In this document: piece by piece, positions 12,443 to 44,954 of the stretch
How the letters are laid out: each line of letters opens with the position of its first letter
Position numbering within the stretch: the first letter of the stretch is position 1
From: Candidatus Thorarchaeota archaeon
Lineage (GTDB): Archaea; Asgardarchaeota; Thorarchaeia; Thorarchaeales; Thorarchaeaceae
DNA length: 64,000 bases
NCBI GenBank assembly: GCA_016933575.1
Contig: JAFGAR010000088.1
Coordinates: forward strand, 32,001 to 96,000
Direction: 5' to 3'
Position numbers and translations under genes: made by a program
The notes under the pieces: model-generated
Databases searched by the model: none
Told to the model about the DNA's origin: nothing
The model's input: the letters and a program-made list of their open reading frames with translations, nothing else

Positions 12443-13648
12443 ATGACAGTCGAGAGAGAATATACCGAGGGTAGAACAACCTTCCTCAGTGCAGATGTTG
12501 ATCACTATAGAGGTGATAAGAACCAAGTAACTGCAAGTATGCCAGTCTTCTATAATCCTCGAATGCGATTGAATAGAGATATTTCGGTCATTCTTTTCTC
12601 TGCGTATTTGAAGAGTAATCCTGTAGAAGTGATGTGTGAACCACTTACTGGGTCTGGTGTCAGAACGCTACGATATCTGAATGAATGTAATGATGCTATG
12701 ACTGCAAAGATGTTTGATGTTAATCCAAATGCAATAGATATCGCGCGAAGGAATATCAAACGTCTAGGATTTGAAGACAGAGCTCAGGTCATCAAGGGCG
12801 ATGCTAAACTCTTGCTAATGTCAGAATCCAGAGAGAAACGATTTGATTATGTTGATGTTGATCCCTTTGGTACTCCAGCACTCTATCTAAATGCAGCCAT
12901 CCAGTCTCTGAACCCAGATGGAGGGTTGCTTGCTCTAACTGCAACAGATATGCCTGTACTCTGCGGTTCATATCAAAAAGTGGCTCTGCGGCGATATGGC
13001 GGATTCTCACTAAAGGCTCCATTTGTTCATGAGGTTGCAATTCGTCTTCTTCAAGGTCTGGCATTTCGATTAGCGGGACTCAATGATGCTTCAATGAAGC
13101 CCATTGCAGTTCTGAGTACTGACCATTATGTTAGAACTTGGGTACGGATTGAAGCGGACAGAAAGGAATCAAATAGACAATCAGAAAGAATTGGGATAAT
13201 CAGATACTGTCAAGGATGTATGAAGACGGAAACACATCCACTCACACCAATTAGGGATGAAACATATTTTGAACATGCAATTAATGACTGTAAAGGTCCA
13301 ATACGAGAAGCAGGCCCACTGTGGATTGGTGACTTGTTCAATGGGAAGATACTCGAGCATGCTTGGGAGATATTTAGTCAAGAAGAAACGAGTATCTATC
13401 ATAGACGCGTTTCGAGAATTCTAGAAGAAATGAGAGAGGAGGATGAGTTGATACGATTTCCGTTTCTTGATATACATGCACTATGTGACTTGCATAATCT
13501 CACGCCTCCCAAGAACAGTGCCATTATAGAATACCTCAAGAACGCTGGATATAGAGTGTCCAGAACGCACTTCACGCCAACTGCAATCAGAACGGATGCT
13601 CCAACTCAAGAGATTGTATCATCGATTAGAAATCTAATAGGAAAGTGA
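12443..13648 (+). CDS. trm1: tRNA (guanine26-N2)-dimethyltransferase
   Basis: VFYNPRM..NRD, DVDPFGTP, TATD, GPLWIG, SRTHF motifs. Confidence 0.92.
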   Translation: MTVEREYTEGRTTFLSADVDHYRGDKNQVTASMPVFYNPRMRLNRDISVILFSAYLKSNPVEVMCEPLTGSGVRTLRYLNECNDAMTAKMFDVNPNAIDIARRNIKRLGFEDRAQVIKGDAKLLLMSESREKRFDYVDVDPFGTPALYLNAAIQSLNPDGGLLALTATDMPVLCGSYQKVALRRYGGFSLKAPFVHEVAIRLLQGLAFRLAGLNDASMKPIAVLSTDHYVRTWVRIEADRKESNRQSERIGIIRYCQGCMKTETHPLTPIRDETYFEHAINDCKGPIREAGPLWIGDLFNGKILEHAWEIFSQEETSIYHRRVSRILEEMREEDELIRFPFLDIHALCDLHNLTPPKNSAIIEYLKNAGYRVSRTHFTPTAIRTDAPTQEIVSSIRNLIGK

Positions 13649-14633: not shown

Positions 14634-14761
14634 GGATACGACCCTTGAATAAACACATGGCAACATCGGACGAAGTACACAGACCGATATTTAACTATCG
14701 GAAGCTACACGACATAATCGGCAAACGTCGTAGAATAAATAGCACGGATGTACAGTTGTGT

Positions 14762-15001
14762 TCATTGGCTTTTTTGCATGTAGAGCATTTGTCCAATGAG
14801 TTGACTAGTATCATAATCCCTGTTTGGGCGAATAGCAACATAGGGATTCTGTACAGGTCCGAAGACGTCCATAATTTTACCGACTATCTGTGCCTTCTTA
14901 TCCATCACAACGGACTTGTCACCTACAGGAGGAGTCTTCTCTGTTTTGACAATGATGGATCCACGATTTGATATGTGGAGGACTGTACCTAATCGTCGCA
15001 T
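14762..15001 (-). CDS. gar1: H/ACA RNP subunit Gar1
   Basis: LG.VLH...VGKIMDVFGPVQNPY. Confidence 0.9.
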   Translation of the reverse strand: MRRLGTVLHISNRGSIIVKTEKTPPVGDKSVVMDKKAQIVGKIMDVFGPVQNPYVAIRPNRDYDTSQLIGQMLYMQKSQ

Positions 15002-30887: not shown

Positions 30888-32144
30888 CTAGAGAAGGCGA
30901 CGAAGGCCTAATTCATCCAGGTCTTTCTTCTTCTCAAGTTCTTTGTGTTTTCTACCACCGAGAGTCCGCTCTAGAGGCTTGAGTCTATCTTCCCAAGAAC
31001 CTCGTGGCGAATCTGGTATCTTCCCAAATGCCTTTGCTCTTGCCTGAACTGAACCAAGTGACGTGGTCTGTGAACCTATTACGCCAAATTCTGCAAGACG
31101 CTTTGTTGCTACTGATATTCCAGATTCTTCTTTTGATCGCGGGAGCAATTGAGGACTCTTCACTCCAGTGAGAATAAGCATGACCCGCAATACACCGCCC
31201 AGACGAGGATCGACTCGAGCCCCCCAGATAACATTTGCATCAAGACTCATCTTCTCGGAAACCAGTTCACCGACCTTATTAGCCTCAGCGAGGCTCATGT
31301 CCGGGCCTCCAGTGATGTGAATCAATGCACCTGTGGCCCCACTCCACTCTACTTCTAGGAGGGGGCTGTTCAACGCGTTCTTTATCGCTGCGTGTGCTCG
31401 GTCTTGGCCAGTGGCCTCACCAAGTCCGACAAGGGCTACACCACCATTGCAGATAATTGAGCGAACGTCAGCATAATCCAAATTGATCAGGCTAGGCATA
31501 GTAATGGTTTCAGTGATGCCTTTGACCATATTGGCAAGGACTTCATCAGCTACACCAAATGCTTCCTCTATGGGTAGATCTGGAACAAGTTGCATGAGCT
31601 TCTGGTTATCAATGACTACAGCTGTGTCAACATTCTCTTGAAGACGAGCAAGACCAGCTTTTGCCTTATCGATACGAGTTCGTTCAAGACTGAAAGGCAT
31701 TGTAACAACACCAACCACAATTGCATCGTTGTTTTTCGCAATCTCTGCCACAACTGGTGCACTCCCTGTTCCTGTACCACCGCCCATACCTGCTGCAATA
31801 AAGACTAGGTCAGCATCGCGGAGTAATTCGGTCAATTGCCCTGTGGATTCCTCAGCTGCAGCTTTCCCAACATGAGGGTAGCCCCCGGCTCCTAGTCCTC
31901 GGGTAATTCGTTCTCCAATCAATAGTTTCCTGTGTGCTGTGGTAACAGCAAGATGTTGTCTATCTGTATTGATTGCAATACATTCAGCGCCTTGAACACC
32001 GATCGTCATTAACCGCTTTACTGTATTATTACCTGCACCACCACAACCGACTACGACTATACGAGCTTGCCCTACATCGCGCATTGTTGAAGACCCTCTC
32101 TCAATTTGGCTATGTTCTCGTGCAGAGTCAATGAACGACCTCAT
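30888..32144 (-). CDS. ftsZ: Cell division GTPase FtsZ (FtsZ2-like by context)
   Basis: [20 protein letters not shown] and T7 loop INLDYAD motifs. Confidence 0.96.
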
Positions 32145-32326
32145 TATCCTATGACCTCACTCATTCTTTCTTTTTGATACATGTTCTGGTCCCATAGCTC
32201 TCGCTTCAGGAGGTCTCGGATAGCAATTCGGATTGCCTCTGAACGATTGGGATAGAGACCTTTGTCAACCAGTTGTTGAATATCAATTACAATCCGATCT
32301 GGTAAGTGCACAGCTATGAGACGCAT
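32144..32326 (-). CDS. cdrS: Ribbon-helix-helix regulator, CdrS-like
   Basis: G.YPNRSEAIR.AIRDLL; stop overlaps the ftsZ start, as in the archaeal cdrS-ftsZ2 operon. Confidence 0.85.
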   Translation of the reverse strand: MRLIAVHLPDRIVIDIQQLVDKGLYPNRSEAIRIAIRDLLKRELWDQNMYQKERMSEVIG

Positions 32327-32364
32327 ATCTAGTCCTCTATGATAGCCGGGAAGTATGGGGATAT

Positions 32365-32379
32365 GTATTTGTGTAATAC
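32365..32379. promoter_or_regulatory. Palindrome GTATT-N5-AATAC upstream of cdrS (candidate operator)
   Basis: GTATTTGTGTAATAC about 40 bp upstream of the start codon. Confidence 0.4.
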
Positions 32380-32542
32380 CTTGATTCAGCTGATTGCAAT
32401 TGATTTTTTGTAGTTATTTGCACGAATCAAGTATCTCGATATGCGTGATTTAAAAATACAGAAACTCGAATCTGTTGCTTCTGACCCTAATATATATAGC
32501 TAAAAAAGGATTCAACAATGTTATGGTTAACTGACTCTTCAC

Positions 32543-35500
32543 TTAGCTATATTCAGTATTGGGCTGATCAAACTCTCGTTCTTCATCCCAATCCTCTTCA
32601 AACGCCTCATCAATCTCCTCAACTTCTGAGGACTCCAACTCTTCAATATGCCCAATGATAGCATTTTCAAGTTTCGAGTAGTCTGAGAGAATATGCACCA
32701 ACCTAAGATTCACAAGAGCCTCTGCATCAATCGAGAGATTGTATCTTGAGTTAGAATCAATATCGACAAACTGACCGCATTCTGCTAATAACGCCACATC
32801 GAATATTCCCATATCCTCATTCTCTAATTCAGAAACTCTCTGATTCTCTTTCAACCCATCCAGATGTATCTTCAGATACTTCTTGAAACCACGTTCTTTT
32901 TTCTGTTCATCCACACTGATTCGGAGGATGATATCGCCGCCCACACTTGTTTCCAAGAACTCCTCGCATGTTGAGGGTACTGCAATATTGTCAGAGAAGA
33001 ATGTTGAACGATGAATGAGGGGCTTGAGCACAGAGAGATCGTAGAACTCGCGTTTTCCTTCCTTGTTCTTAACCATCATTTCGTCATAATCGACATCTTT
33101 CAGGGGATCCCACTTGAGGTATGTTCCTTCACGAGTCGCAAAATACTCTCCAGTTCTCTGTGGATATCTGAGAAATCGGATCACCTCGTCGGTGTAGGGA
33201 GTTTCCTTTCTTGCAATCAGCTTAGATCCCTCAAGCAGGTTGATTCTGTAGACTCTCTTCTCGAGATTGATGGTAAGAAGACATGAAACCTCTCTGATGA
33301 CTCCAGCCCATTCAACAGCCTCACGTAACACCCTATCACACTGTGCACGAACGTTCGAGGGAAGTGATGATGGCCTGTACCCATGGAGAGCAAGGAGGGT
33401 TTCAGGCAAAGGTTCTGACAACCGTATCCATCGTACTGGCAGGCTCTTCTCCTTTGGAGGGTTTCCATACTCGAATACTCCAGCAAACGTCCATTCTTTG
33501 CCATCCTCTCCTTCACTCTTTATGTAAAGCACCTGTTGCCGGCTCACTTCGAGAAGGATAATGGGCAGTTCATCCCATCCCTCTCTTGATAGTGCAGTGG
33601 TCGCTTCAGCCTTAGTCTGTTCAGGGTCAATCACACAACGGTACCAACTATAAGGAAGGTATGCACTCATCTGACCTTCAACTAGCCCTCCGTACATAGT
33701 GTTCTTCAAGGATGGAAACAACAACCAGATGGGTCCTCCCTCACTCCCTTCTCGCCATAGCAGTTGTCCGAATCGTTCTATAAATCTCGGTCTACCTGAT
33801 GATGTCATCTTCTTCATCTGCTTCGCCCTCCATTGGAGATTCTTGTGTATTGCCTGAAAGTCGTATCGATATTCAAAGTCGTTATCATCCTCCGGTCTAA
33901 AGCCCATCTGGTGGAATTGCCATCTAGCAACAGCAGACCATAAGTCAATGCAAGATGGTGACTCTACATCTCTGAAGATATTTTCCGCTACCGAAAGTAC
34001 TGCGAGAAAGAGGTTCATCCCATAGATCTCTAGAAGCTCGACATTGTGACTCTGAGCAAGTCTGAGAGATCTCTGATTGTCTAAGTTTAATAGGCTTCCA
34101 AGACTCAGCCGAGTATTTGATAGGAGCCTCCAGAGAAGCCTGGGTTCAGTTCTTCGTAGTAGTGCATCTTTCACTTGAGTCAAAGTATTGAGTAGAATTT
34201 CATCATCACATGATTGATAATCATTGCATTCACAGATGCTGATGATATCTTGATACAATGAAAAGAGCGAGTTGCGCAACGATGTTCTATCCATCAGAAA
34301 GGTTGCAGCATAGAGCAGTCTATGAATCTCTCTTCTTCTCGTATTGGTGGTATCGATATGTGATGATTTCGTAGAATAATTGAGAGGAGGTCTACGAGTG
34401 ATAGTGACTTGCTGTTCATGCTGTTCATCATGCTCTTTGTGAATCCAGCCCCTTGTAATTCGATCAGCACCAACATGGATTCCTTGATGGCATTTTCCAA
34501 GTCTGTTTGGATGAGGTGGCGGTTGCATCAGGTCAAGATGCAACCTACTGGTCAGACTTGGCTGAGTCCTCATACTATCCACAGGATGGTAAGCTGTTTT
34601 CCAATCCTCACTGACATCATCTATCTCAATTTCATTTGTCTGCTCTAGTCTTGGTCTACACAGACTAGGTATCAGACTGGCTGCTCTCTCTTTGATTGTA
34701 TTCAGGCTCTCTCTACCAATCATGTTGCATCGAACCTGAATTGAGGCGCTATGAAACGATCTTCCGTACATGTCCTGTTGTTGGTTCAAAGCTCCAGATT
34801 GTTTACCCACTTCGACATTGAAACTCTGTGTTGCCGCCGCACTGAATTTGCGAGTCCAGCCTCTGAGATGTGGAACACAAATCACAGTTGTCCATGGTTG
34901 GTTATCTATAGGGAGGTCCTGAACGATGACTCGACTCTCATCATATTGGGGGGTTAACCATCCCATCTCTCGCGGAACTGTGGGAAGATTCCAGATTATC
35001 TCATCTACAAGTTGTCTTCGCGGCGAATTATAGTACAGAGGATTCACACACGGTCGCTGGTAGGTCTTGTTCATCTCAGGATGATTCACACCACTATCGA
35101 CCCATATCAATTCAGAGGCAAAGTCCTTCAAGATTTGGAGTAGTGACAATTCAAGTATCTGCAGACTATTTCTACGACCAACAGGTACCATACTCTCAAG
35201 GTCTGGCCAACCATCTACAATGATAATTCGTTCTCCGGATTCTTTGAGGAACATAGACTTGATTCTAGCATGGAAATCCTTCAGTCCTGAAGACCCATTG
35301 GCAAAAATCAGATTATCTGTTTCTTTTTGGAGGTCTATAAAATGTACGCGCTTGAGAACGCCGCTGAGTCTGATATACTCCAACTGACTGATTAGTCCTC
35401 TCTTTCGGAGATTACCAAGTCCGAATCTCATATTGACAAGTTTCTCAGTCGAATAGTCACCAAGAAAATCCATCCAGAAGAGAGATGGACTAGAAGTTAC

Positions 35501-37390
35501 AGTTTCTGCTAATTCAGCGAGATGATTCAACAGGTGCCAGTTTTTAGCCAGCCATGCGGCACTCTTGCCAGAGGTTGTTGGTGAAGAAACAGAGATGTAT
35601 TGAGTAAAGAAGAAACCATCCTCTACTCGTTCTGCAAAAGGGTCTTCATTTTGTGCGTTCTTGGTGGGGACAATGCTTCTCAGGAGATGCTCAGGACCTT
35701 GAGCTGGTGTCATTGTGATAGCGATGCGCGGTACTGTTCCATTAATAGTCGTACACTCAAACTTGAGTGTCTTCCATTGACCACGAAATTCTCCTTCCAT
35801 TAGCTTCGTGGCCAGTTGGTCGATGAGTTGGTCAAAAGCCTTCTTCGTTACTTTAAAGCCCTGGAATGTGTCAAGAGTTACAACTCCCTTCCAGACACGT
35901 TTTGGTGCCAGCGGATTGTTGACAAGGGTATTGAATTCGGTAAGTAGTATTCGCTCGTATTCATCTAACTGGTCAAGATGGGACTTTGGAGGTTTGGAAC
36001 CTAATACTGCATTCCATTCAGAATCCGTAAGACGCTCTTTCCAGGAATGGAGTACTGGAACGTAGACGTCCTTCTTCCTAGTTCGAGGTTTCATTCCATA
36101 GATATTGAAGTTGAATCCTCCTTTCGTCTTTACTTCAAGAATCATAACAGGAGTCCAGATGTACTGCCCTGCACCTCTCAATATTCGTGCAAAAAGTACA
36201 AGATCTATCTTTCCAGCTCCCTGATCCCCAACGACAGGAACCTCCGCCAGATATTGTATTCCAGACGGATTCTGCAGAAATTCATCGCCTGCAAAGACAA
36301 CCTCTCTCAGAGATTTTGGGTGGCAGAACCCTGAGAGGAGCACTCTGTGCCAGTCATTCCCTTCTCTTTGTGTCTTCTTTGTAATCTCTTCGAAGAATTT
36401 TGAGGTTTCTTTACCTGTGATAATTCCATTTCGAATATGACCAAGGACAACCTCACCCCGCTCTCTGACATATTCCTCTTCTGAAGACTCCAGAGTCGTT
36501 TCGACTCTCTTTTTTAGAAATTCAACATCAAGGCCTGTTGGAGGAGTCTCTATTTGCTTGCTAATGCTCTCACTTATTCCACTCTTATCACCGAAATGAG
36601 TCCTGATTTCAAGTACAATCTTGCTAAGTTCTTTATCCGCATCAGGATGGAAGTTCTTTCGACCAACTTTACCTTGTGTGTAGACCCAATCGAGGAATGG
36701 TATGAGCCTATGAATCAGTAACCGGATATATCTATGACACTCGCGGCGAGGAACAGTGTGGATGAAGCATTGCCGACAGAGCTCTATGAGGTGCGCGCGA
36801 ATCATGTCAGCAAAGTCGAGGACGGGAAGGGTCGGATGCGCAAGGAGAACGCGCGGATTTTTTGAATTCCCTCGGTACCCTGCCTTCTGGTGAATTTTTA
36901 CACCCCTCTCCAGTGGTATTCTATCAGCTACACCCTCGGGAATGATATCTACTCGACCATCTCTGTATTTTCTTATCTGGTAGAGGTCTGGGTCTGGAAA
37001 ATAGTATCGAGGGACTAACACATCTCGTAACAGAGAACCCATATAGTTGAGGAGTTCATTAAGTGGCCCAACGGTCCCCTCTCTCCAGTTGTAAACCCGT
37101 TTGAACTCCTTGTTACCGTATCGTTTTGTACTGTACCAGAGCATCTGAAGGTACAATCTTCTCAGAACAGACTCTCTATTCTGTATGGAAGAGAAGTCAT
37201 ATGAGCCCTGTTCTCTGCAAGACGCCCATTCAGTACGCGCAACTTCCCAGTTGCACCTGATCTGTTCATAGAAAACGTTCGTCAGGTCGTTCTTTCTTTT
37301 GTAGGAAAGCCTGACTAAGGCTGATAGTCCTGAGTATATTGCATCTGCCAGAACCTCATTCGGTCGGATTTCTTGGACTTTTCGCCCCAA
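32543..37390 (-). CDS. Large protein (1615 aa) with a RecB/Cas4-like PD-(D/E)XK nuclease domain and a putative P-loop region
   Basis: GNDWH...AEVPV...GKIDLV...ILEVKT...QLDEY, then SSPTTSGKS and RIIIVDG. Confidence 0.75.
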   Translation of the reverse strand: MGRKVQEIRPNEVLADAIYSGLSALVRLSYKRKNDLTNVFYEQIRCNWEVARTEWASCREQGSYDFSSIQNRESVLRRLYLQMLWYSTKRYGNKEFKRVYNWREGTVGPLNELLNYMGSLLRDVLVPRYYFPDPDLYQIRKYRDGRVDIIPEGVADRIPLERGVKIHQKAGYRGNSKNPRVLLAHPTLPVLDFADMIRAHLIELCRQCFIHTVPRRECHRYIRLLIHRLIPFLDWVYTQGKVGRKNFHPDADKELSKIVLEIRTHFGDKSGISESISKQIETPPTGLDVEFLKKRVETTLESSEEEYVRERGEVVLGHIRNGIITGKETSKFFEEITKKTQREGNDWHRVLLSGFCHPKSLREVVFAGDEFLQNPSGIQYLAEVPVVGDQGAGKIDLVLFARILRGAGQYIWTPVMILEVKTKGGFNFNIYGMKPRTRKKDVYVPVLHSWKERLTDSEWNAVLGSKPPKSHLDQLDEYERILLTEFNTLVNNPLAPKRVWKGVVTLDTFQGFKVTKKAFDQLIDQLATKLMEGEFRGQWKTLKFECTTINGTVPRIAITMTPAQGPEHLLRSIVPTKNAQNEDPFAERVEDGFFFTQYISVSSPTTSGKSAAWLAKNWHLLNHLAELAETVTSSPSLFWMDFLGDYSTEKLVNMRFGLGNLRKRGLISQLEYIRLSGVLKRVHFIDLQKETDNLIFANGSSGLKDFHARIKSMFLKESGERIIIVDGWPDLESMVPVGRRNSLQILELSLLQILKDFASELIWVDSGVNHPEMNKTYQRPCVNPLYYNSPRRQLVDEIIWNLPTVPREMGWLTPQYDESRVIVQDLPIDNQPWTTVICVPHLRGWTRKFSAAATQSFNVEVGKQSGALNQQQDMYGRSFHSASIQVRCNMIGRESLNTIKERAASLIPSLCRPRLEQTNEIEIDDVSEDWKTAYHPVDSMRTQPSLTSRLHLDLMQPPPHPNRLGKCHQGIHVGADRITRGWIHKEHDEQHEQQVTITRRPPLNYSTKSSHIDTTNTRRREIHRLLYAATFLMDRTSLRNSLFSLYQDIISICECNDYQSCDDEILLNTLTQVKDALLRRTEPRLLWRLLSNTRLSLGSLLNLDNQRSLRLAQSHNVELLEIYGMNLFLAVLSVAENIFRDVESPSCIDLWSAVARWQFHQMGFRPEDDNDFEYRYDFQAIHKNLQWRAKQMKKMTSSGRPRFIERFGQLLWREGSEGGPIWLLFPSLKNTMYGGLVEGQMSAYLPYSWYRCVIDPEQTKAEATTALSREGWDELPIILLEVSRQQVLYIKSEGEDGKEWTFAGVFEYGNPPKEKSLPVRWIRLSEPLPETLLALHGYRPSSLPSNVRAQCDRVLREAVEWAGVIREVSCLLTINLEKRVYRINLLEGSKLIARKETPYTDEVIRFLRYPQRTGEYFATREGTYLKWDPLKDVDYDEMMVKNKEGKREFYDLSVLKPLIHRSTFFSDNIAVPSTCEEFLETSVGGDIILRISVDEQKKERGFKKYLKIHLDGLKENQRVSELENEDMGIFDVALLAECGQFVDIDSNSRYNLSIDAEALVNLRLVHILSDYSKLENAIIGHIEELESSEVEEIDEAFEEDWDEEREFDQPNTEYS

Positions 37391-37646
37391 GCAGACTCCT
37401 CGGGGGCAATTTCATAATTTTATTTATAAGTAATTCTATCTTAATTGGAATTCTTTTTTTATAATATAAAGTTCTCATAATACCTTTTTTGAAATTTTAA
37501 GCAATAATAGAATTTTTGTTTAATAAGTTTATATAACTTGAATATGATACTAATACGAGTTCAAAAGACTCCTTCAGAACAAGAAAGGGAGTGAACTTGA
37601 CTGGCTCAGAAACGGGTCAGAAGTTTATATAACGTAGGCGAATGCG

Positions 37647-39323
37647 ATGGCTCGGTCCCGTGGAACAACAATCAGTGTAAAGGTCCCTATTAATTGGGAT
37701 ATCATGACGCAAAGGACTCAACAGAGGTTGAGGCAGATTGTTGGAAGGGATACCCGAGTAATCCGAGCGTTCCTTGGAATAATCGAACAACACGAAAACG
37801 AATTGCTAACCGGTCGAAAGAATAACAGAATTCATGATGGAAAATTAGACAAACTCACAATTACAGCGATTAGGGTCAAAGCTGGTAACGGTCAAAGGAT
37901 CACTGTTTCTCACGATATCAAACAGAGGTTCACAAGAATCTCTACGAATGAACTTCAGGAATGCAGGCAGACAGCGGTAGCGCTCTATGAGAGCTACTTG
38001 GCATTGAAAGGAAAAAAAAGATGGAGTCCATCTCGTCCTTCGAAGGTAAACTCAACTAGAAGAATACCACGATGGACGTTCATACAAAGATTCAAGCTCG
38101 AGCAGAATTCATCATCTGTTTCAAGATGGTGGCTCAATCTTCGGGACACTCTTGACTCTGTACCTGAAGGCCGCGTAATTCATGATAGATTATCTATTCC
38201 CCTAAAGGTGTCCCCCTTTCATATCAATCAGTTCCAACGAGGAGAAGTAAAGGCATGTCAAATCTTCACTGATCTTTCAGGGAAGTGGTGGGTAAATTTC
38301 GCTATACGTGTGGCCATTTCAGAGATTCCAAGTACCATTCATCCTCCTGCTGTTCTAGGAATCGACCTTGGTATCGAGAAGGCTGCATGTACGACCTTGA
38401 TTACACCTATGAAGGTACGAGAAACCCGATTCTTCAAACAGAGGAATAAGCTTGAAGTTATCAAGAATTACGACCGACTAGTGGCAGACCTTCAACACGA
38501 GATTTCTACTCGTATCAATACGACTCAGAATGCTGATGGTGTGCTTCAAAAAATAAGGCAGATGCGATATAAACGAGAAAGGGTTGCTCGTGGATATGAC
38601 CGAGTTCTTGTTAGAAACTTACTGGACTATATCGAAGAGTTGTCTGAGAAGTACACACTCTATGTAGCAATTGGTCGCTTGAAGAATATCCGAAATACAG
38701 CTCGAAAAGGTAACTTCAAGGGAAGAGAGTTCAGGGGAATGATTCACTCTTGGGCTTTTGCAAGAATCTCTGAGAGTCTAAAACATGGATTAGCCCAAAA
38801 AGGCTGGTCTGTGGAGGGAAAAGACGCGAGATTCCGTGCAGTTCCTGAAGCTTGGACATCCATCATGTGTTGGAAATGCGGTAGCAAAGGAGTAAGATCC
38901 AAACAGAATTACTTCAATTGTCCATCGTGTGGTCACAAAACAAATGCAGATAGGAATGGAGCAATCAATATCGCCGGACGTCTTATTACGCTCACAAAGT
39001 CATTGCACAATGTGAGAGGACTAGGTAAGTGGGAAACCTCTGTTCAGGCAGGGAAATACTCACGACCGAAAGCCCGAAAGAAGATGCCTTCTCAAGGGAA
39101 GTTCTTACTCTCCGAAGAAGATGAAACATCACATCTTGGAGAGTCCGCGGCTGTTCACTTTGTCCAGATGGACCTTATTAGTTTCAGTGATGGAATTAGT
39201 GAGGGCGATGACGATCCCGCCGTGGAAAATACTGTGGAAATCCTCTCTGTTGCTAGAAGTGATGCTCCGGCGTTAGAACAGGAGAAAGAAGCCAGGTCTT
39301 CAGGAGGGATTCCATCCCAATGA
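37647..39323 (+). CDS. tnpB: TnpB-like RNA-guided endonuclease (IS200/IS605/IS607-associated family) with a rearranged RuvC site
   Basis: RuvC-I LGIDLG (D240), RuvC-II position AIGRL (G343), VPEAWTS (E401), CxxC..CxxC zinc finger, RuvC-III NADRNGAINI (D435). Confidence 0.9.
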   Translation: MARSRGTTISVKVPINWDIMTQRTQQRLRQIVGRDTRVIRAFLGIIEQHENELLTGRKNNRIHDGKLDKLTITAIRVKAGNGQRITVSHDIKQRFTRISTNELQECRQTAVALYESYLALKGKKRWSPSRPSKVNSTRRIPRWTFIQRFKLEQNSSSVSRWWLNLRDTLDSVPEGRVIHDRLSIPLKVSPFHINQFQRGEVKACQIFTDLSGKWWVNFAIRVAISEIPSTIHPPAVLGIDLGIEKAACTTLITPMKVRETRFFKQRNKLEVIKNYDRLVADLQHEISTRINTTQNADGVLQKIRQMRYKRERVARGYDRVLVRNLLDYIEELSEKYTLYVAIGRLKNIRNTARKGNFKGREFRGMIHSWAFARISESLKHGLAQKGWSVEGKDARFRAVPEAWTSIMCWKCGSKGVRSKQNYFNCPSCGHKTNADRNGAINIAGRLITLTKSLHNVRGLGKWETSVQAGKYSRPKARKKMPSQGKFLLSEEDETSHLGESAAVHFVQMDLISFSDGISEGDDDPAVENTVEILSVARSDAPALEQEKEARSSGGIPSQ

Positions 39324-39455
39324 TAGCAGACAAAGCTCTTGCTGATTACATTCTCTGTGGAGTATGTAAGATGGCGACATCAAGTAAGGGAAGGGTAGAA
39401 CACAGAAGTTTCTTTCAGTTGAATTTCACTCAACAAGGGAGATTCAAATTGTATG
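39230..39455 (+). ncRNA. Putative omegaRNA/right-end region of the TnpB locus (boundaries approximate)
   Basis: Several stems overlapping and following the ORF end; a final GTTGA..TCAAC hairpin ends at 39434. Confidence 0.45.
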
Positions 39456-39521
39456 AATACTTGTAATACTCACCTATACTCAGATGAAAGATTCAGGTCG
39501 TATTTGTCCTTGTAATACTCA
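39440..39521. repeat. Two degenerate 33-bp direct repeats with a 49-bp period
   Basis: AGATTCA..T.GTAT...T.CTTGTAATACTCA at 39440 and 39489 (26/33 identical). Confidence 0.6.
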
Positions 39522-39557
39522 GATACTGATAATATAATAGCAAAAGAAGAGGAAACC

Positions 39558-39576
39558 GAGAGAGGTGACCTCTCTC
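39558..39576 (-). terminator. Hairpin downstream of rpl2
   Basis: GAGAGAGG-TGA-CCTCTCTC, with pyrimidine/U-rich sequence downstream on the minus strand. Confidence 0.6.
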
Positions 39577-39590
39577 AGTTCAAGAACTGT

Positions 39591-40313
39591 TTACTTTGTC
39601 TTGCGACCAGTTCTTCTTGCTGCAATATTACCGACTTTACGACCCGGAGGTGCGTGTCTACTCACTGTAGAAGGTCGACCAGGTGACTGATGTGACCCAC
39701 CACCGTGTGGATGCGAGGCTGCATTCATTGCAGCACCCCTGACAACAGGCCATTTTCGCGCTGTTCCACGAGTGTGGTGCCAGACTGCACCGGCTTTCAG
39801 GAAAGGTTTCTCAGATCGGCCACCACCAGCAACGATACCAACTGTAGCTCTGCATCGTGGACTGAAAGCCTTCTGTGAGCCACTTGGAAGGCGGACCATA
39901 GCCTTGGTCTTGTCTATGGATACTATTGTTGCTGTAAGACCTGAAGATTTCACGTACTTGCCACCATCCCCGGGGCTTCCTTCAATGTTATACACTGGAG
40001 TGCCTTCAGGGATATACTCAAGCATTAGAGTATTGCCATTTGCCAATCGGGCTTCCTCTCCGCTTTCAACCACTTGACCAACATATGCTCCTTCAGGAGC
40101 CACCATGTAGTACGGTTTTGTTTCGCCTTCATAGCGAATCTCAGCTAGAGGAGCACCTCGACCAGCCTCATGGAGGAGATCAATAATAGTTCCCACATAT
40201 GTCTTGCCAGGAGCCCATTTAGGATGTCTAGCAGGAGCTATCTTCTTGTGGCTCGGAGACCTCCATTGAGTAGTGCCTCGACCTTTCCGCTGCACAAGTA
40301 TTTTTCTACCCAT
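39591..40313 (-). CDS. rpl2: 50S ribosomal protein uL2
   Basis: MGRKILVQRKGRG, WPVVRGAAMNAASHPHGGG, PPGRKVG motifs. Confidence 0.97.
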   Translation of the reverse strand: MGRKILVQRKGRGTTQWRSPSHKKIAPARHPKWAPGKTYVGTIIDLLHEAGRGAPLAEIRYEGETKPYYMVAPEGAYVGQVVESGEEARLANGNTLMLEYIPEGTPVYNIEGSPGDGGKYVKSSGLTATIVSIDKTKAMVRLPSGSQKAFSPRCRATVGIVAGGGRSEKPFLKAGAVWHHTRGTARKWPVVRGAAMNAASHPHGGGSHQSPGRPSTVSRHAPPGRKVGNIAARRTGRKTK

Positions 40314-42587: not shown

Positions 42588-44954
42588 TCAGAATCTATTC
42601 TGTTCAGTTCTAGCTAGTATCTCATCTTGTAGGTCTTTCCCGATATTTACAAAGTAGTCTGAATATCCAGCAACCCGTACAATGAGATTTTGATAGTTTT
42701 CAGGATGTCTTTGAGCATCTCTCAAGGTGTCCGCCCTAATGACATTGAATTGAATGTGATGACCTCCAAGCTTGAAATATGTACGAACTAGGTCAGCCAG
42801 TTTTCGTCTTCCCTCAAGATCAGCCAATACATCAGGCATGAATTTCTGATTTAGAAGGGTTCCTCCAGTCTTTGAGTGATCGATCTTGGAAACAGATTTT
42901 ATTACAGCAGTGGGACCATTAGTGTCAGCTCCATGACTTGGAGAGATACCATCAGACAGTGGAGATCCTGCCCTTCGTCCGTCAGGTGTAGCACCTGTCA
43001 CTTGTCCAAAATAGATGTGTACTGTTGTAGGAAGAAGATTTACCCGATACTCACCACCCTTGGTATTGGGTCGACCATCAATTGCCTTGAAGTAGGCTTC
43101 AAAGACTGTCTTTGCAATGTCATCTGCAATGTCATTGTCATTACCATACTTTGGTGTCTTATTCAACAAGGTCATTCTCATAGGTTCGTTGTCTTTGAAA
43201 TCGGTTACAATTGCATCAAGTACCTGGGACATGGTGTATCGTTTCTTATCAAAGACATGATGTTTGAGTGATGTAAGTGAATCAGTAATTGTCCCCATCC
43301 CAACACCTTGAATGTATGTTGAATTATATCGTGGACCACCATTATGGTAGTCTTTTCCCTTCATAATACAATCATCAAATAACAAGGACAGGAAGGGAGC
43401 TGGCATATACTCTGCATACAGTCGCTCGATTATGTTGTTGCCCTTGATTTTTATATCAATGAAATATTCTAGTTGTTTCTCATAGGCTGAGAACAGCTCT
43501 TCATAAGACCGGAATTCACTTGCAATACCAGTCTGAGGACCGACTTGGATTCCTGTTCTGGGATCAACACCATTATGAAGTGTAATCTCAAGAATCTTAG
43601 GCCAGTTACAATATCCTGTCAATATGCAACTTTCTTTTCCAAAAGCACTGATAGTCACACAGCCACTAGGACCTCCAACCCTTGCATCTTCAAGTGACTT
43701 TCCAGCCCGAAGGAACTCCTTGATTATGACATCTGTGTTGAACATTGAGGGTTGACCAAAACCTTCCTTCACCACATCAACTGCGCTCAAGAGAAACCTG
43801 TCGGGATTCTCTGTACTCATCTGGATGCAGACACTCGGTTGTATCAGTCTCATCTCATTACAGACTTCTAGGATGAGATATGATATCTCATTGACACCGT
43901 CTGTACCATCTATCTTTAAGCCACCGGTATTGATCAACGCAAAGTCTTGGTAGGTCCCACTCTGTTGTTCAGTGATGTCCACTTTGGGTGGGGCAGGTTG
44001 ATTGTTGAACTTAATCCAGAAGCATTGCAGAAGCTCTTTAGCTGAATCTCTGGTAAGAGTACCCTGCTCAAGTCCCTGCTCATAGAAAGGATGGAGATGC
44101 TGGTCCAATCGACCAGGATTGAAGCTGTCCCATACATTGAGCTCAGTAATAACTCCTAGATGAATGAACCAATATGCCTGAAGAGCCTCCCAGAAATCAC
44201 GGGGAGGATTTGCTGGAACGTGATGACATACATCTGCAATTTTCCTCAGTTCTTTTTTACGCTCAGGCTCAGATTCCAACTTAGCAAGTTCCTCTGCTTT
44301 ATCAGCATAACGTTGCGCAAAAGCAATCATAGCTTCTGCTGCAATTCTCATCGCCTTGAGTTCTTGTTCCTTGAGATACGCCTCTAGGTCATTATAGAAA
44401 TCTAATTTTTCCAAGCTCTTCTCAATATCATCGATTAGATTCAGCAGTCCTCTTCGATAGATCTTATCATCTAAGATTGCATGACCGGGGGCTCGCTGTT
44501 CCATGAACTCAGTAAACACACCAGCCTCAAAGGCGTTCATCCAATCATCGGACATTGCATTGAAGACTCGTTCACGCATTGTCCTTCCTTTCCAGAAGGG
44601 AATAATATCATCACGGTAGGTGTTTAGTGTGTCTTCACTTACTAGAAAGGGAGTTCGTTCACGAGAATTGGCAATAGTAAGGTCATCGATTGTATGACAG
44701 CATAGTTCGGGGTACGTGGGAGTAGCTCTTGGTGCTGAACCGCGCTCTCCAACTATTAGTTCTCCATCAGCAATCATAATTGTCTTATTTTCGAGAATGT
44801 ACTTGAATGCAAGAGCTCGTGCGATAGGTGTCGATACCAAGTCTGCTGCTCCACTTTGATAGAAGTCTGTTAGAAATTCTGCACGTTCTGTGCAGATGTA
44901 AGGCTTTGTACCTACACTCTGATTCCTTAGTGCAATCACGCGCTCAGTCTGCAA
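42588..44954 (-). CDS. Glycyl radical enzyme, HypD (4-hydroxyproline dehydratase)-like with a variant active site
   Basis: IVRVAGYS glycyl motif; RAPGH, ELN.WD, APPKV, TY.DF, LPTT.H.YFG; Cys loop reads SGCVT. Confidence 0.85.
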   Translation of the reverse strand: MQTERVIALRNQSVGTKPYICTERAEFLTDFYQSGAADLVSTPIARALAFKYILENKTIMIADGELIVGERGSAPRATPTYPELCCHTIDDLTIANSRERTPFLVSEDTLNTYRDDIIPFWKGRTMRERVFNAMSDDWMNAFEAGVFTEFMEQRAPGHAILDDKIYRRGLLNLIDDIEKSLEKLDFYNDLEAYLKEQELKAMRIAAEAMIAFAQRYADKAEELAKLESEPERKKELRKIADVCHHVPANPPRDFWEALQAYWFIHLGVITELNVWDSFNPGRLDQHLHPFYEQGLEQGTLTRDSAKELLQCFWIKFNNQPAPPKVDITEQQSGTYQDFALINTGGLKIDGTDGVNEISYLILEVCNEMRLIQPSVCIQMSTENPDRFLLSAVDVVKEGFGQPSMFNTDVIIKEFLRAGKSLEDARVGGPSGCVTISAFGKESCILTGYCNWPKILEITLHNGVDPRTGIQVGPQTGIASEFRSYEELFSAYEKQLEYFIDIKIKGNNIIERLYAEYMPAPFLSLLFDDCIMKGKDYHNGGPRYNSTYIQGVGMGTITDSLTSLKHHVFDKKRYTMSQVLDAIVTDFKDNEPMRMTLLNKTPKYGNDNDIADDIAKTVFEAYFKAIDGRPNTKGGEYRVNLLPTTVHIYFGQVTGATPDGRRAGSPLSDGISPSHGADTNGPTAVIKSVSKIDHSKTGGTLLNQKFMPDVLADLEGRRKLADLVRTYFKLGGHHIQFNVIRADTLRDAQRHPENYQNLIVRVAGYSDYFVNIGKDLQDEILARTEQNRF

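Follow-up and report, generated by a model that had tools for sequence, protein, structure and literature searches.

What could move a TnpB nuclease gene that has no TnpA transposase at its side? The question is raised by a 64,000-nt stretch of a Candidatus Thorarchaeota genome (assembly GCA_016933575.1, contig JAFGAR010000088.1, positions 32,001 to 96,000; hereafter the window, whose own numbering is used for its features). Here, a tnpB gene and a giant gene coding for a 1615-aa protein stand head-to-head between rpl2 and cdrS-ftsZ, separated by a 256-bp AT-rich spacer. The first-pass annotation of the window, which had described these open reading frames and neighbours correctly, offered the pair as a candidate new system. 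We consider it probable, at roughly 78%, that the segment from about 32380 to 39499 is one copy of a Thorarchaeota aCas1-TnpB mobile element, in which the giant protein would be a Cas1-like integrase accompanying an RNA-guided TnpB.

Altae-Tran et al. (2023; PMC10691335) reported TnpBs associated with 'Asgard Cas1' (aCas1) in two Asgard groups, Cas1H-Asgard-1 and Cas1H-Asgard-2. In their proposal, aCas1, which goes back to the Asgard Cas1 variants described by Makarova et al. (2020, CRISPR J), serves as the transposase of a transposon family of its own. They also found that tnpB is followed by a variable region and then by a conserved GTTCACTCA motif. Because the window locus combines the GTTCACTCA motif with a Cas1 fold, we assign it to this family; it is probably a new, partly decayed member of elements that had been described computationally, and no new kind of system, so the novelty claimed in the first pass was not upheld. 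The likeness extends to the Asgard host, the position of tnpB beside a Cas1 homologue, the lack of TnpA and the placement of GTTCACTCA after tnpB. The published loci are flanked by repeats; those observed here are imperfect direct repeats of the target, of about 15–19 nt in the window copy, and copy 2 has none that is clear. We see no essential difference. Our analysis adds that the variable stretch forms the 5′ arm of a covarying hairpin, not an obvious spacer, and that a target-matching sequence follows this hairpin.

The Cas1 fold of the giant protein was recognized from its predicted structure. Pfam and NCBIfam searches with the 1615-aa protein returned no family (no Pfam match at E ≤ 1), PDB sequences searched with profiles of each half gave only a chance-level match to a DnaB intein and none for the C-terminal half, and a feature-based search of the ESM Atlas with residues 1–275 produced no usable match. 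Its 67 homologues, all from Thorarchaeota or Promethearchaeota where the source was named, are likewise 'hypothetical' and contain no Pfam domain. An alignment of 56 sequences was used for residue conservation and as input for AlphaFold2, which modelled residues 1–870 with a pLDDT of 85.9 and a pTM of 0.84. Exhaustive structural comparison with VIA-align retrieved Cas1 as the best match (8flj_A, Z 12.8, rmsd 3.8, 176 residues), with further matches to 4n06 (Z 11.8), the casposase 6opm (11.0) and the Cas4-Cas1 entries 7mi4 (10.7) and 8d3p (10.0). In all, 12 Cas1 or casposase entries covered residues 2–256 of the model, which matched the helical catalytic domain of Cas1, and these Z scores are to be read with the caution usual for helical domains.

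All 56 homologues share E73, N111, H185, D192, D195 and R198 without exception, and N111 lies within a P-L-N-x-L-L-N-Y motif, corresponding to the N-x-x-LNY motif of Cas1. The first five are colinear with the invariants E179, N213, H244 and D256 and the near-invariant E259 of canonical Cas1, for which 18 Asgard proteins were compared. The best hhalign alignments, although non-significant, placed the canonical Glu and Asn on E73 and N111, whereas the canonical His and Asp were equated with residues of the giant protein by inspection. Judging from the model, the N terminus of the giant protein is a predicted Cas1 fold with intact catalytic-type residues. The sole canonical Cas1 found among the 28 genomes of the genus (PF01867, 202 bits) is encoded on another contig of the host genome, at G000:C105:30000-30779 (L111).

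Past this domain, residues ~330–590 appear from their sequence to carry a PD-(D/E)xK nuclease motif, with D396, E/D419 and K421 each conserved in 56/56 homologues and located on consecutive strands of the model. Residues 591–843 resemble RecA/KaiC/RadA-like P-loop ATPases, with Foldseek matches to RAD51 and DnaB (E ~1e-4) and VIA Z scores of 10–12 to Elp456, KaiC and RAD51 paralogues. The first-pass description of the protein as nuclease/ATPase-like was therefore sound for these two parts and had overlooked the Cas1-like domain that precedes them. The remaining C-terminal ~745 residues were modelled with confidence (pLDDT 79) and have no good structural match. Among them, residues ~1004–1183 gave a weak Cas1-like match (VIA Z 5–6, to Cas1 entries only); a second Cas1-like domain stays tentative, since comparison of N-terminal (A1) and C-terminal (A2) profiles showed no significant internal duplication. 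The window copy lacks the final ~95 residues, and its homologues run on to a conserved ...SYY/DYY end. At a separate locus (L095, G015:C218:2110-7203), the gene for a distant paralogue of 1422 aa has no tnpB, and the gene that comes after it codes for a 274-aa Rad51/KaiC-type ATPase; together, they may be a split form of the fused architecture.

The 558-aa product of the second gene matched PF07282 above its cut-off (46.9 bits), the guided_TnpB model NF040570 under its curated cut-off of 100 (83.7 bits, E 1.5e-23), and the TnpB structure 9nzp in the PDB (E 8e-8). It has the RuvC-I and RuvC-III aspartates (D240 and D435) and a zinc ribbon (C408/C411/C425/C428). The RuvC-II Glu is replaced by G343 ('VAIGRLKN'), which on sequence appears to match the 'rearranged RuvC-II' state of a TnpB class described by Altae-Tran et al. 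(2023; PMC10691335); a compensating Glu was not located in the window TnpB. No Y1 (PF01797) or serine (PF00239) recombinase was found in the whole assembly, which is 85.5% complete, extending what had been said in the first pass of the window.

The giant gene and tnpB form a conserved unit. Three full pairs, all divergent, occur on one contig of the host genome (the window copy and copies 2 and 3), plus fragments; between these copies, the TnpBs are 63–64% identical and the giant proteins 24–38%. In the genus, a divergent tnpB adjoins the giant gene at 28 of ~36 loci with enough flank, the spacer between them measuring 237–286 bp in 27 of the 28 pairs (mostly 247–260 bp; the exception, L093, has ~1.15 kb). 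The pairing is kept even among giant paralogues with ~24% identity. This adjacency is far beyond chance, and homologues of the giant gene usually do have a neighbouring tnpB, in keeping with the first-pass proposal of a two-gene module. That proposal also set the giant protein in the place of the TnpA of IS605, and it is the best candidate for that role. An 866-aa protein encoded beside an unpaired distant paralogue was considered as a TnpB and rejected, as it is not one. The giant protein was found in 15 of 24 sampled genomes of the same genus, where a single genome can hold as many as 16 matches at different sites, and in none of 16 genomes from other genera of the phylum.

Comparison with relatives indicated that both genes arrived jointly as a 7.1-kb insertion, because the start of cdrS and the stop of rpl2 lie close together, ~116–133 bp apart, at the empty sites of about 20 genomes of the genus. 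Alignment of seven empty sites placed the junctions at about 32379/32380 and 39499/39500, so the island delimited in the first pass did enter as a whole. The other two copies of the host genome are also insertions; they measure 9.2 and 8.0 kb, and in relatives the genes on either side of them are direct neighbours. These data bear on whether tnpB might be an independent insertion sequence, with ends at ~37.55 and ~39.43 kb, lying beside an unrelated giant gene. The presence of an inverted copy of the right-end motif in the spacer, at 37587-37597, and of two tnpB copies without the giant gene (L101 and L102) would agree with such an origin, but 27 of 28 pairs keep the same spacing and orientation, and the empty sites lack both genes. 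Additionally, L102 retains ~30 nt from the 5′ end of the giant gene and is thus a deletion derivative, while L101 is truncated just upstream of DR1, a promoter-like box of the spacer. Both tnpB-only copies derive from the pair by decay or truncation, and we hold an independent tnpB element to be the least probable of the alternatives considered here.

The right end of the element has a conserved, guide-RNA (omegaRNA)-like region overlapping the 3′ end of tnpB. The GTTCACTCA(C) motif occurs 3′ of tnpB in 18 of 18 pairs, mostly ~100 nt past the stop codon, and takes the degenerate form TTTCACTCAA in the window copy (39424-39433). It is enclosed by a hairpin, which nearly every one of 40 copies can form and whose stem shows compensatory changes (TCTTACA/TGTAAGA, TTTCTTGT/ACAAGAAA and TCTTATAG/CTATAAGA); the 'variable region' before GTTCACTCA is the 5′ arm of this hairpin, and the 3′ arm lies just past the motif. 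After the hairpin, the copies share AGGTYA plus 1–2 nt and then diverge completely. Since they diverge only at this point, the guide is most simply the sequence that follows the hairpin, not the one that precedes the motif. A search against Rfam returned nothing relevant, and the element copies compared show no conserved left end beyond the stop codon of the giant gene.

Segments of ~420 nt resembling the guide RNA, made up of the last ~300 nt of tnpB and the end of the scaffold, are common in the genus on their own (for instance G000:C64:173886-174311, outside the window, and L061-L080). Genome G022 has at least eight of them, although no giant gene was found there.

Examination of what adjoins the right end revealed a recurrent class of target. 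Copy 2 abuts nucleotides 1–15 of a tRNA-Ser gene, antisense and contiguous with the chromosome; the right end of copy 3 is followed by 19 nt that are all identical to the tRNA-Thr present at five empty sites; a complete tRNA-Gly adjoins L039/L040; and next to L042/L044 lie the first 14 nt of a tRNA, in antisense. In these sister copies, the adjoining sequence is thus the target in the chromosome, in most cases a tRNA gene in antisense orientation, whereas the window copy occupies an intergenic site. Copies 2 and 3 and L042/L044 also contain, inside the insertion, a spare copy of the interrupted tRNA, which in copy 2 shows four mismatches to the 15 nt that match the guide. The spare tRNA-Thr (L060 ~14694-14850) and tRNA-Ser (L059 ~13000-13140) seem to bear introns, and ARAGORN calls neither; the original tRNA-Thr(TGT) at copy 3 is broken into three pieces.

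With its multiple copies, variable sites, tRNA targets and remnants, the pair behaves like a mobile element and not like a defence module. The first pass had left open defence, homing or mobility, of which mobility is favoured by the copy number, the variable sites and the remnants, and defence is where the evidence points away. A domesticated, immobile module for defence or genome maintenance, whose TnpB would target invaders for degradation by the giant nuclease/ATPase, might be suggested by the nuclease and ATPase parts of the protein and by a truncated copy sitting among housekeeping genes. However, the number of matches, which reaches 16 in one genome and involves different sites, the patchy presence in the genus, the abundance of decayed copies and of guide-RNA remnants, the match of the guides to tRNA genes of the host and not to foreign DNA, and the spare tRNA cargo make this explanation very improbable.

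The right end of the window copy carries a 49-nt tandem unit twice, between the element and rpl2 (39440-39488 and 39489-39537, 79% identity; family D1). Each unit consists of the last 9 nt of the scaffold and 40 nt of target-like sequence, and the inner copy represents another 'allele' than the host genome's own site. Such an arrangement is compatible with the site having been used repeatedly or with an element that came from another lineage, and is no proof of a carried guide. It raises the alternative of an RNA-guided integration like that of CRISPR-associated transposons, where TnpB and a guide RNA carried by the element would select the target and the giant protein, with its Cas1-like and ATPase parts, would insert the element. 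In favour of this model, the guide position of the window copy holds the 40-nt target-like sequence R1, an allele different from the host site, which is followed by the 9-nt scaffold repeat and only then by the chromosome. Likewise, the 19-nt match of copy 3 precedes 545 nt of non-target DNA, right-end remnants pile up at single sites (L040 and L044), and the RecA-like ATPase could act as a TnsC-like component. Conversely, the right flanks of copy 2 and L039/L040 are plain, contiguous chromosome, for which the ordinary rule that the guide equals the flank suffices, and repeated insertions or later events can account for R1 and for the 545 nt. As these contiguous flanks need no such model, we regard integration with a carried guide as unlikely and rank it below the ordinary relation of guide and flank.

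Several observations weigh against assignment of the window locus to a Cas1-driven mobile element. The Pfam model of Cas1, PF01867, does not match the giant protein, and hhalign comparison of canonical Cas1, as a single sequence or as an 18-sequence profile, with the giant family gave E values of 0.03–0.07 and a probability of ~1%. The N-terminal beta domain of Cas1 is absent: structural matches begin at Cas1 residue ~85–114, and the model begins with helices. The Walker A lysine of the ATPase domain (K609 here) is kept in 36 of 56 homologues and lost in 20. A fixed-length duplication of the target is expected of a Cas1 integrase, whereas those observed are irregular, with ~15–19 nt in the window copy, 8 nt in copy 3 and ~46 nt in L039, all of them imperfect, and no convincing terminal inverted repeats surround the insertion. 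Some distant paralogues of the giant gene lack tnpB, the unpaired loci forming a distant clade. Finally, near-identical copies were not found at different loci, so that recent movement is not shown. In the high-identity pairs examined, L039/L040 and L042/L044, at least one flank is syntenic, so that each pair looks like one locus in two species. A profile search of 1.84 billion representatives matched 186 clusters, all of the giant-protein family, which is therefore small, and none of them bridges it to canonical Cas1. The window copy itself may no longer be able to move, because the 3′ end of its giant gene is gone and its right-end motif is degenerate.

For the aCas1-TnpB element as a whole, we envisage that the Cas1-like domain would integrate the element DNA in place of TnpA, and that the nuclease and ATPase parts of the giant protein would process DNA ends. 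TnpB with its guide RNA would cut unoccupied copies of the target and in this way favour retention or homing, as in IS200/IS605/IS607 elements; such cutting has been shown for the TnpBs of IS605 and IS607. The spare tRNA carried by three sister elements may compensate for the interrupted gene.

The divergent spacer follows a plan common to 18 copies: TATA box of the giant gene, AT-rich stretch, DR1, hairpin 1, hairpin 2, DR2 and the tnpB ATG. The spacer hairpins covary between copies, as in the stem of hairpin 1 (for instance, CTCCCTT/AAGGGAG versus CTCCAAT/ATTGGAG). Exact DR1/DR2 pairs of 10–15 nt, at a constant distance, occur in 27 elements with a repeat sequence that varies from element to element, and none of 200 shuffles per element reached the observed length. 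One reading of this concerted pattern is a short self-targeting guide. A more elaborate version, which is speculative and in our estimate unlikely to hold in full, would give TnpB two RNAs. The 3′ guide RNA, its guide being the insertion site, would direct integration by the Cas1-like/ATPase giant protein, while a short RNA from the spacer cassette, ending in GGGTCAGA plus DR2, would let TnpB bind and not cut its own promoter through the 10–15-nt match to DR1, throttling expression. Owing to the spare tRNA, which in copy 2 has mismatches to the guide, the element would then act as a self-immune homing device that attacks intact tRNA alleles.

The element shares features with several known systems. 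As in IS200/IS605 elements (Y1 TnpA) and IS607 elements (serine TnpA), the TnpB guide RNA overlaps the 3′ end of the gene, the flank at the right end matches the target and a partner gene lies upstream. Unlike these, it has no Y1 or serine recombinase, its partner being a Cas1-fold protein of 1600–1900 aa; its RuvC-II Glu is changed to Gly; and, in contrast to IS605, the target is duplicated at the ends. With casposons it shares a Cas1-fold integrase presumed to be the transposase (casposase 6opm, Z 11.0), and casposons prefer tRNA genes as targets and duplicate the target. It differs from casposons in lacking PolB and terminal inverted repeats, in its irregular duplications, in having TnpB, and in its Cas1 domain, which has no N-terminal beta domain and forms one protein with the nuclease and ATPase parts. 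Type V-K CRISPR-associated transposons (Cas12k with TnsB/TnsC/TniQ) similarly link a protein of the TnpB/Cas12 lineage to integration machinery that includes an ATPase; the present element has neither Tn7 proteins nor a CRISPR array, its TnpB keeps the RuvC-I and RuvC-III residues, and RNA-guided integration is for it only a hypothesis. Cas4-Cas1 adaptation modules also combine a PD-(D/E)xK nuclease with a Cas1 catalytic domain, but the element has no Cas2 and no array, the order is Cas1 and then nuclease, and the nuclease part is known here from its motif.

Table 1. Features of the window copy of the element and of its insertion site.
Feature	Position	Strand	Remarks
Left copy of the duplicated target	32365..32379	+	GTATTTGTGTAATAC; imperfect direct repeat of 39500-39518
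Whole insertion relative to the empty cdrS-rpl2 spacer	32380..39499	.	~7.1 kb; holds only two genes
Giant gene	32543..37390	-	1615 aa, TTG start; ORF as in the first-pass annotation
C-terminal ~745 aa of the giant protein	32546..34780	-	Function not assigned; model pLDDT 79
RecA/KaiC/RadA-like P-loop ATPase domain (predicted)	34862..35620	-	aa 591-843
Region with PD-(D/E)xK motif	35621..36403	-	aa ~330-590; D396, E419, K421
Cas1-like catalytic domain (predicted)	36623..37387	-	aa 2-256; AlphaFold2 model, VIA-align
Divergent spacer	37391..37646	.	256 bp, AT-rich; separates the giant gene and tnpB, head-to-head
DR1, promoter-like box	37525..37537	+	AAGTTTATATAAC
Hairpin 1	37557..37598	+	Holds the inverted GTTCACTC motif, GGGAGTGAACT
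Hairpin 2	37599..37621	+	Ends in GGGTCAGA, resembling the end of the right-end guide-RNA scaffold
DR2	37621..37633	+	Exact copy of DR1 directly past hairpin 2, 14 nt before the tnpB ATG
tnpB	37647..39323	+	558 aa
Guide-RNA (omegaRNA)-like conserved region	39018..39448	+	Overlaps the tnpB 3′ end; nucleotide-level conservation between copies
Terminal covarying hairpin	39410..39446	+	TTTCACTCAA (39424-39433) in the loop, then AGATTCAAA
R1, 40-nt target-like sequence in guide position	39449..39488	+	Different 'allele' of the cdrS-rpl2 site
Second copy of the last 9 nt of the scaffold, then right target copy	39489..39518	+	AGATTCAGG, then GTATTTGTCCTTGTAATAC (39500-39518), continuing into the chromosome

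To the right, the insertion is followed by rpl2, rpl23, rpl4, rpl3 and a pyruvate formate-lyase (PFL) gene, all on the minus strand, and to the left by cdrS, encoding a ribbon-helix-helix (RHH) protein, and ftsZ (minus strand). The PFL-like glycyl-radical enzyme gene (42588-44954) directly precedes rpl3 upstream on the same strand. In all 28 genomes of the genus, rpl2 (39560-40313 in the window) adjoins cdrS-ftsZ (30888-32330), with a gap of ~120 bp when empty. The usual archaeal gene order past rpl2 is rps19-rpl22-rps3; here, the ribosomal gene run stops with rpl2 at the cdrS-ftsZ locus, which comes directly after it.

The cdrS-rpl2 spacer holds other insertions, of 0.4–4.9 kb, in three other species (L035, G002:C30; L036, G011:C215; L037, G041:C6); these were considered as copies of the aCas1-TnpB element and rejected, having no match to TnpB, to the giant protein or to the right-end motif. 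The junction between the start of rpl2 and the end of rpl23 (~40305-40310) is a breakpoint in several relatives, with a 3.6-kb insertion in G011 and contig ends in G007 and G004, which suggests a second insertion hot spot. A 160-nt metatranscriptome contig covers positions 38182-38341 of tnpB, with no cover elsewhere on the element; it shows little, as the library could contain DNA.

To our knowledge, aCas1-TnpB elements are the only ones in which TnpB is coupled to a Cas1-type integrase, and we know of no experimental test of them since they were catalogued. The lineages of TnpB and of Cas1-type integrases gave rise to the effectors and to the adaptation machinery of CRISPR systems, respectively. 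Asgard archaea are the archaeal lineage closest to eukaryotes, whose Fanzor nucleases share the rearranged active site. The empty sites, the tRNA targets, the spare tRNA, the terminal hairpin and the promoter-matching cassette provide testable handles for this family, namely a guide-bearing RNA end, a target and residues to mutate. If integration did prove to be RNA-guided, these elements would constitute a compact, two-gene programmable insertion system.

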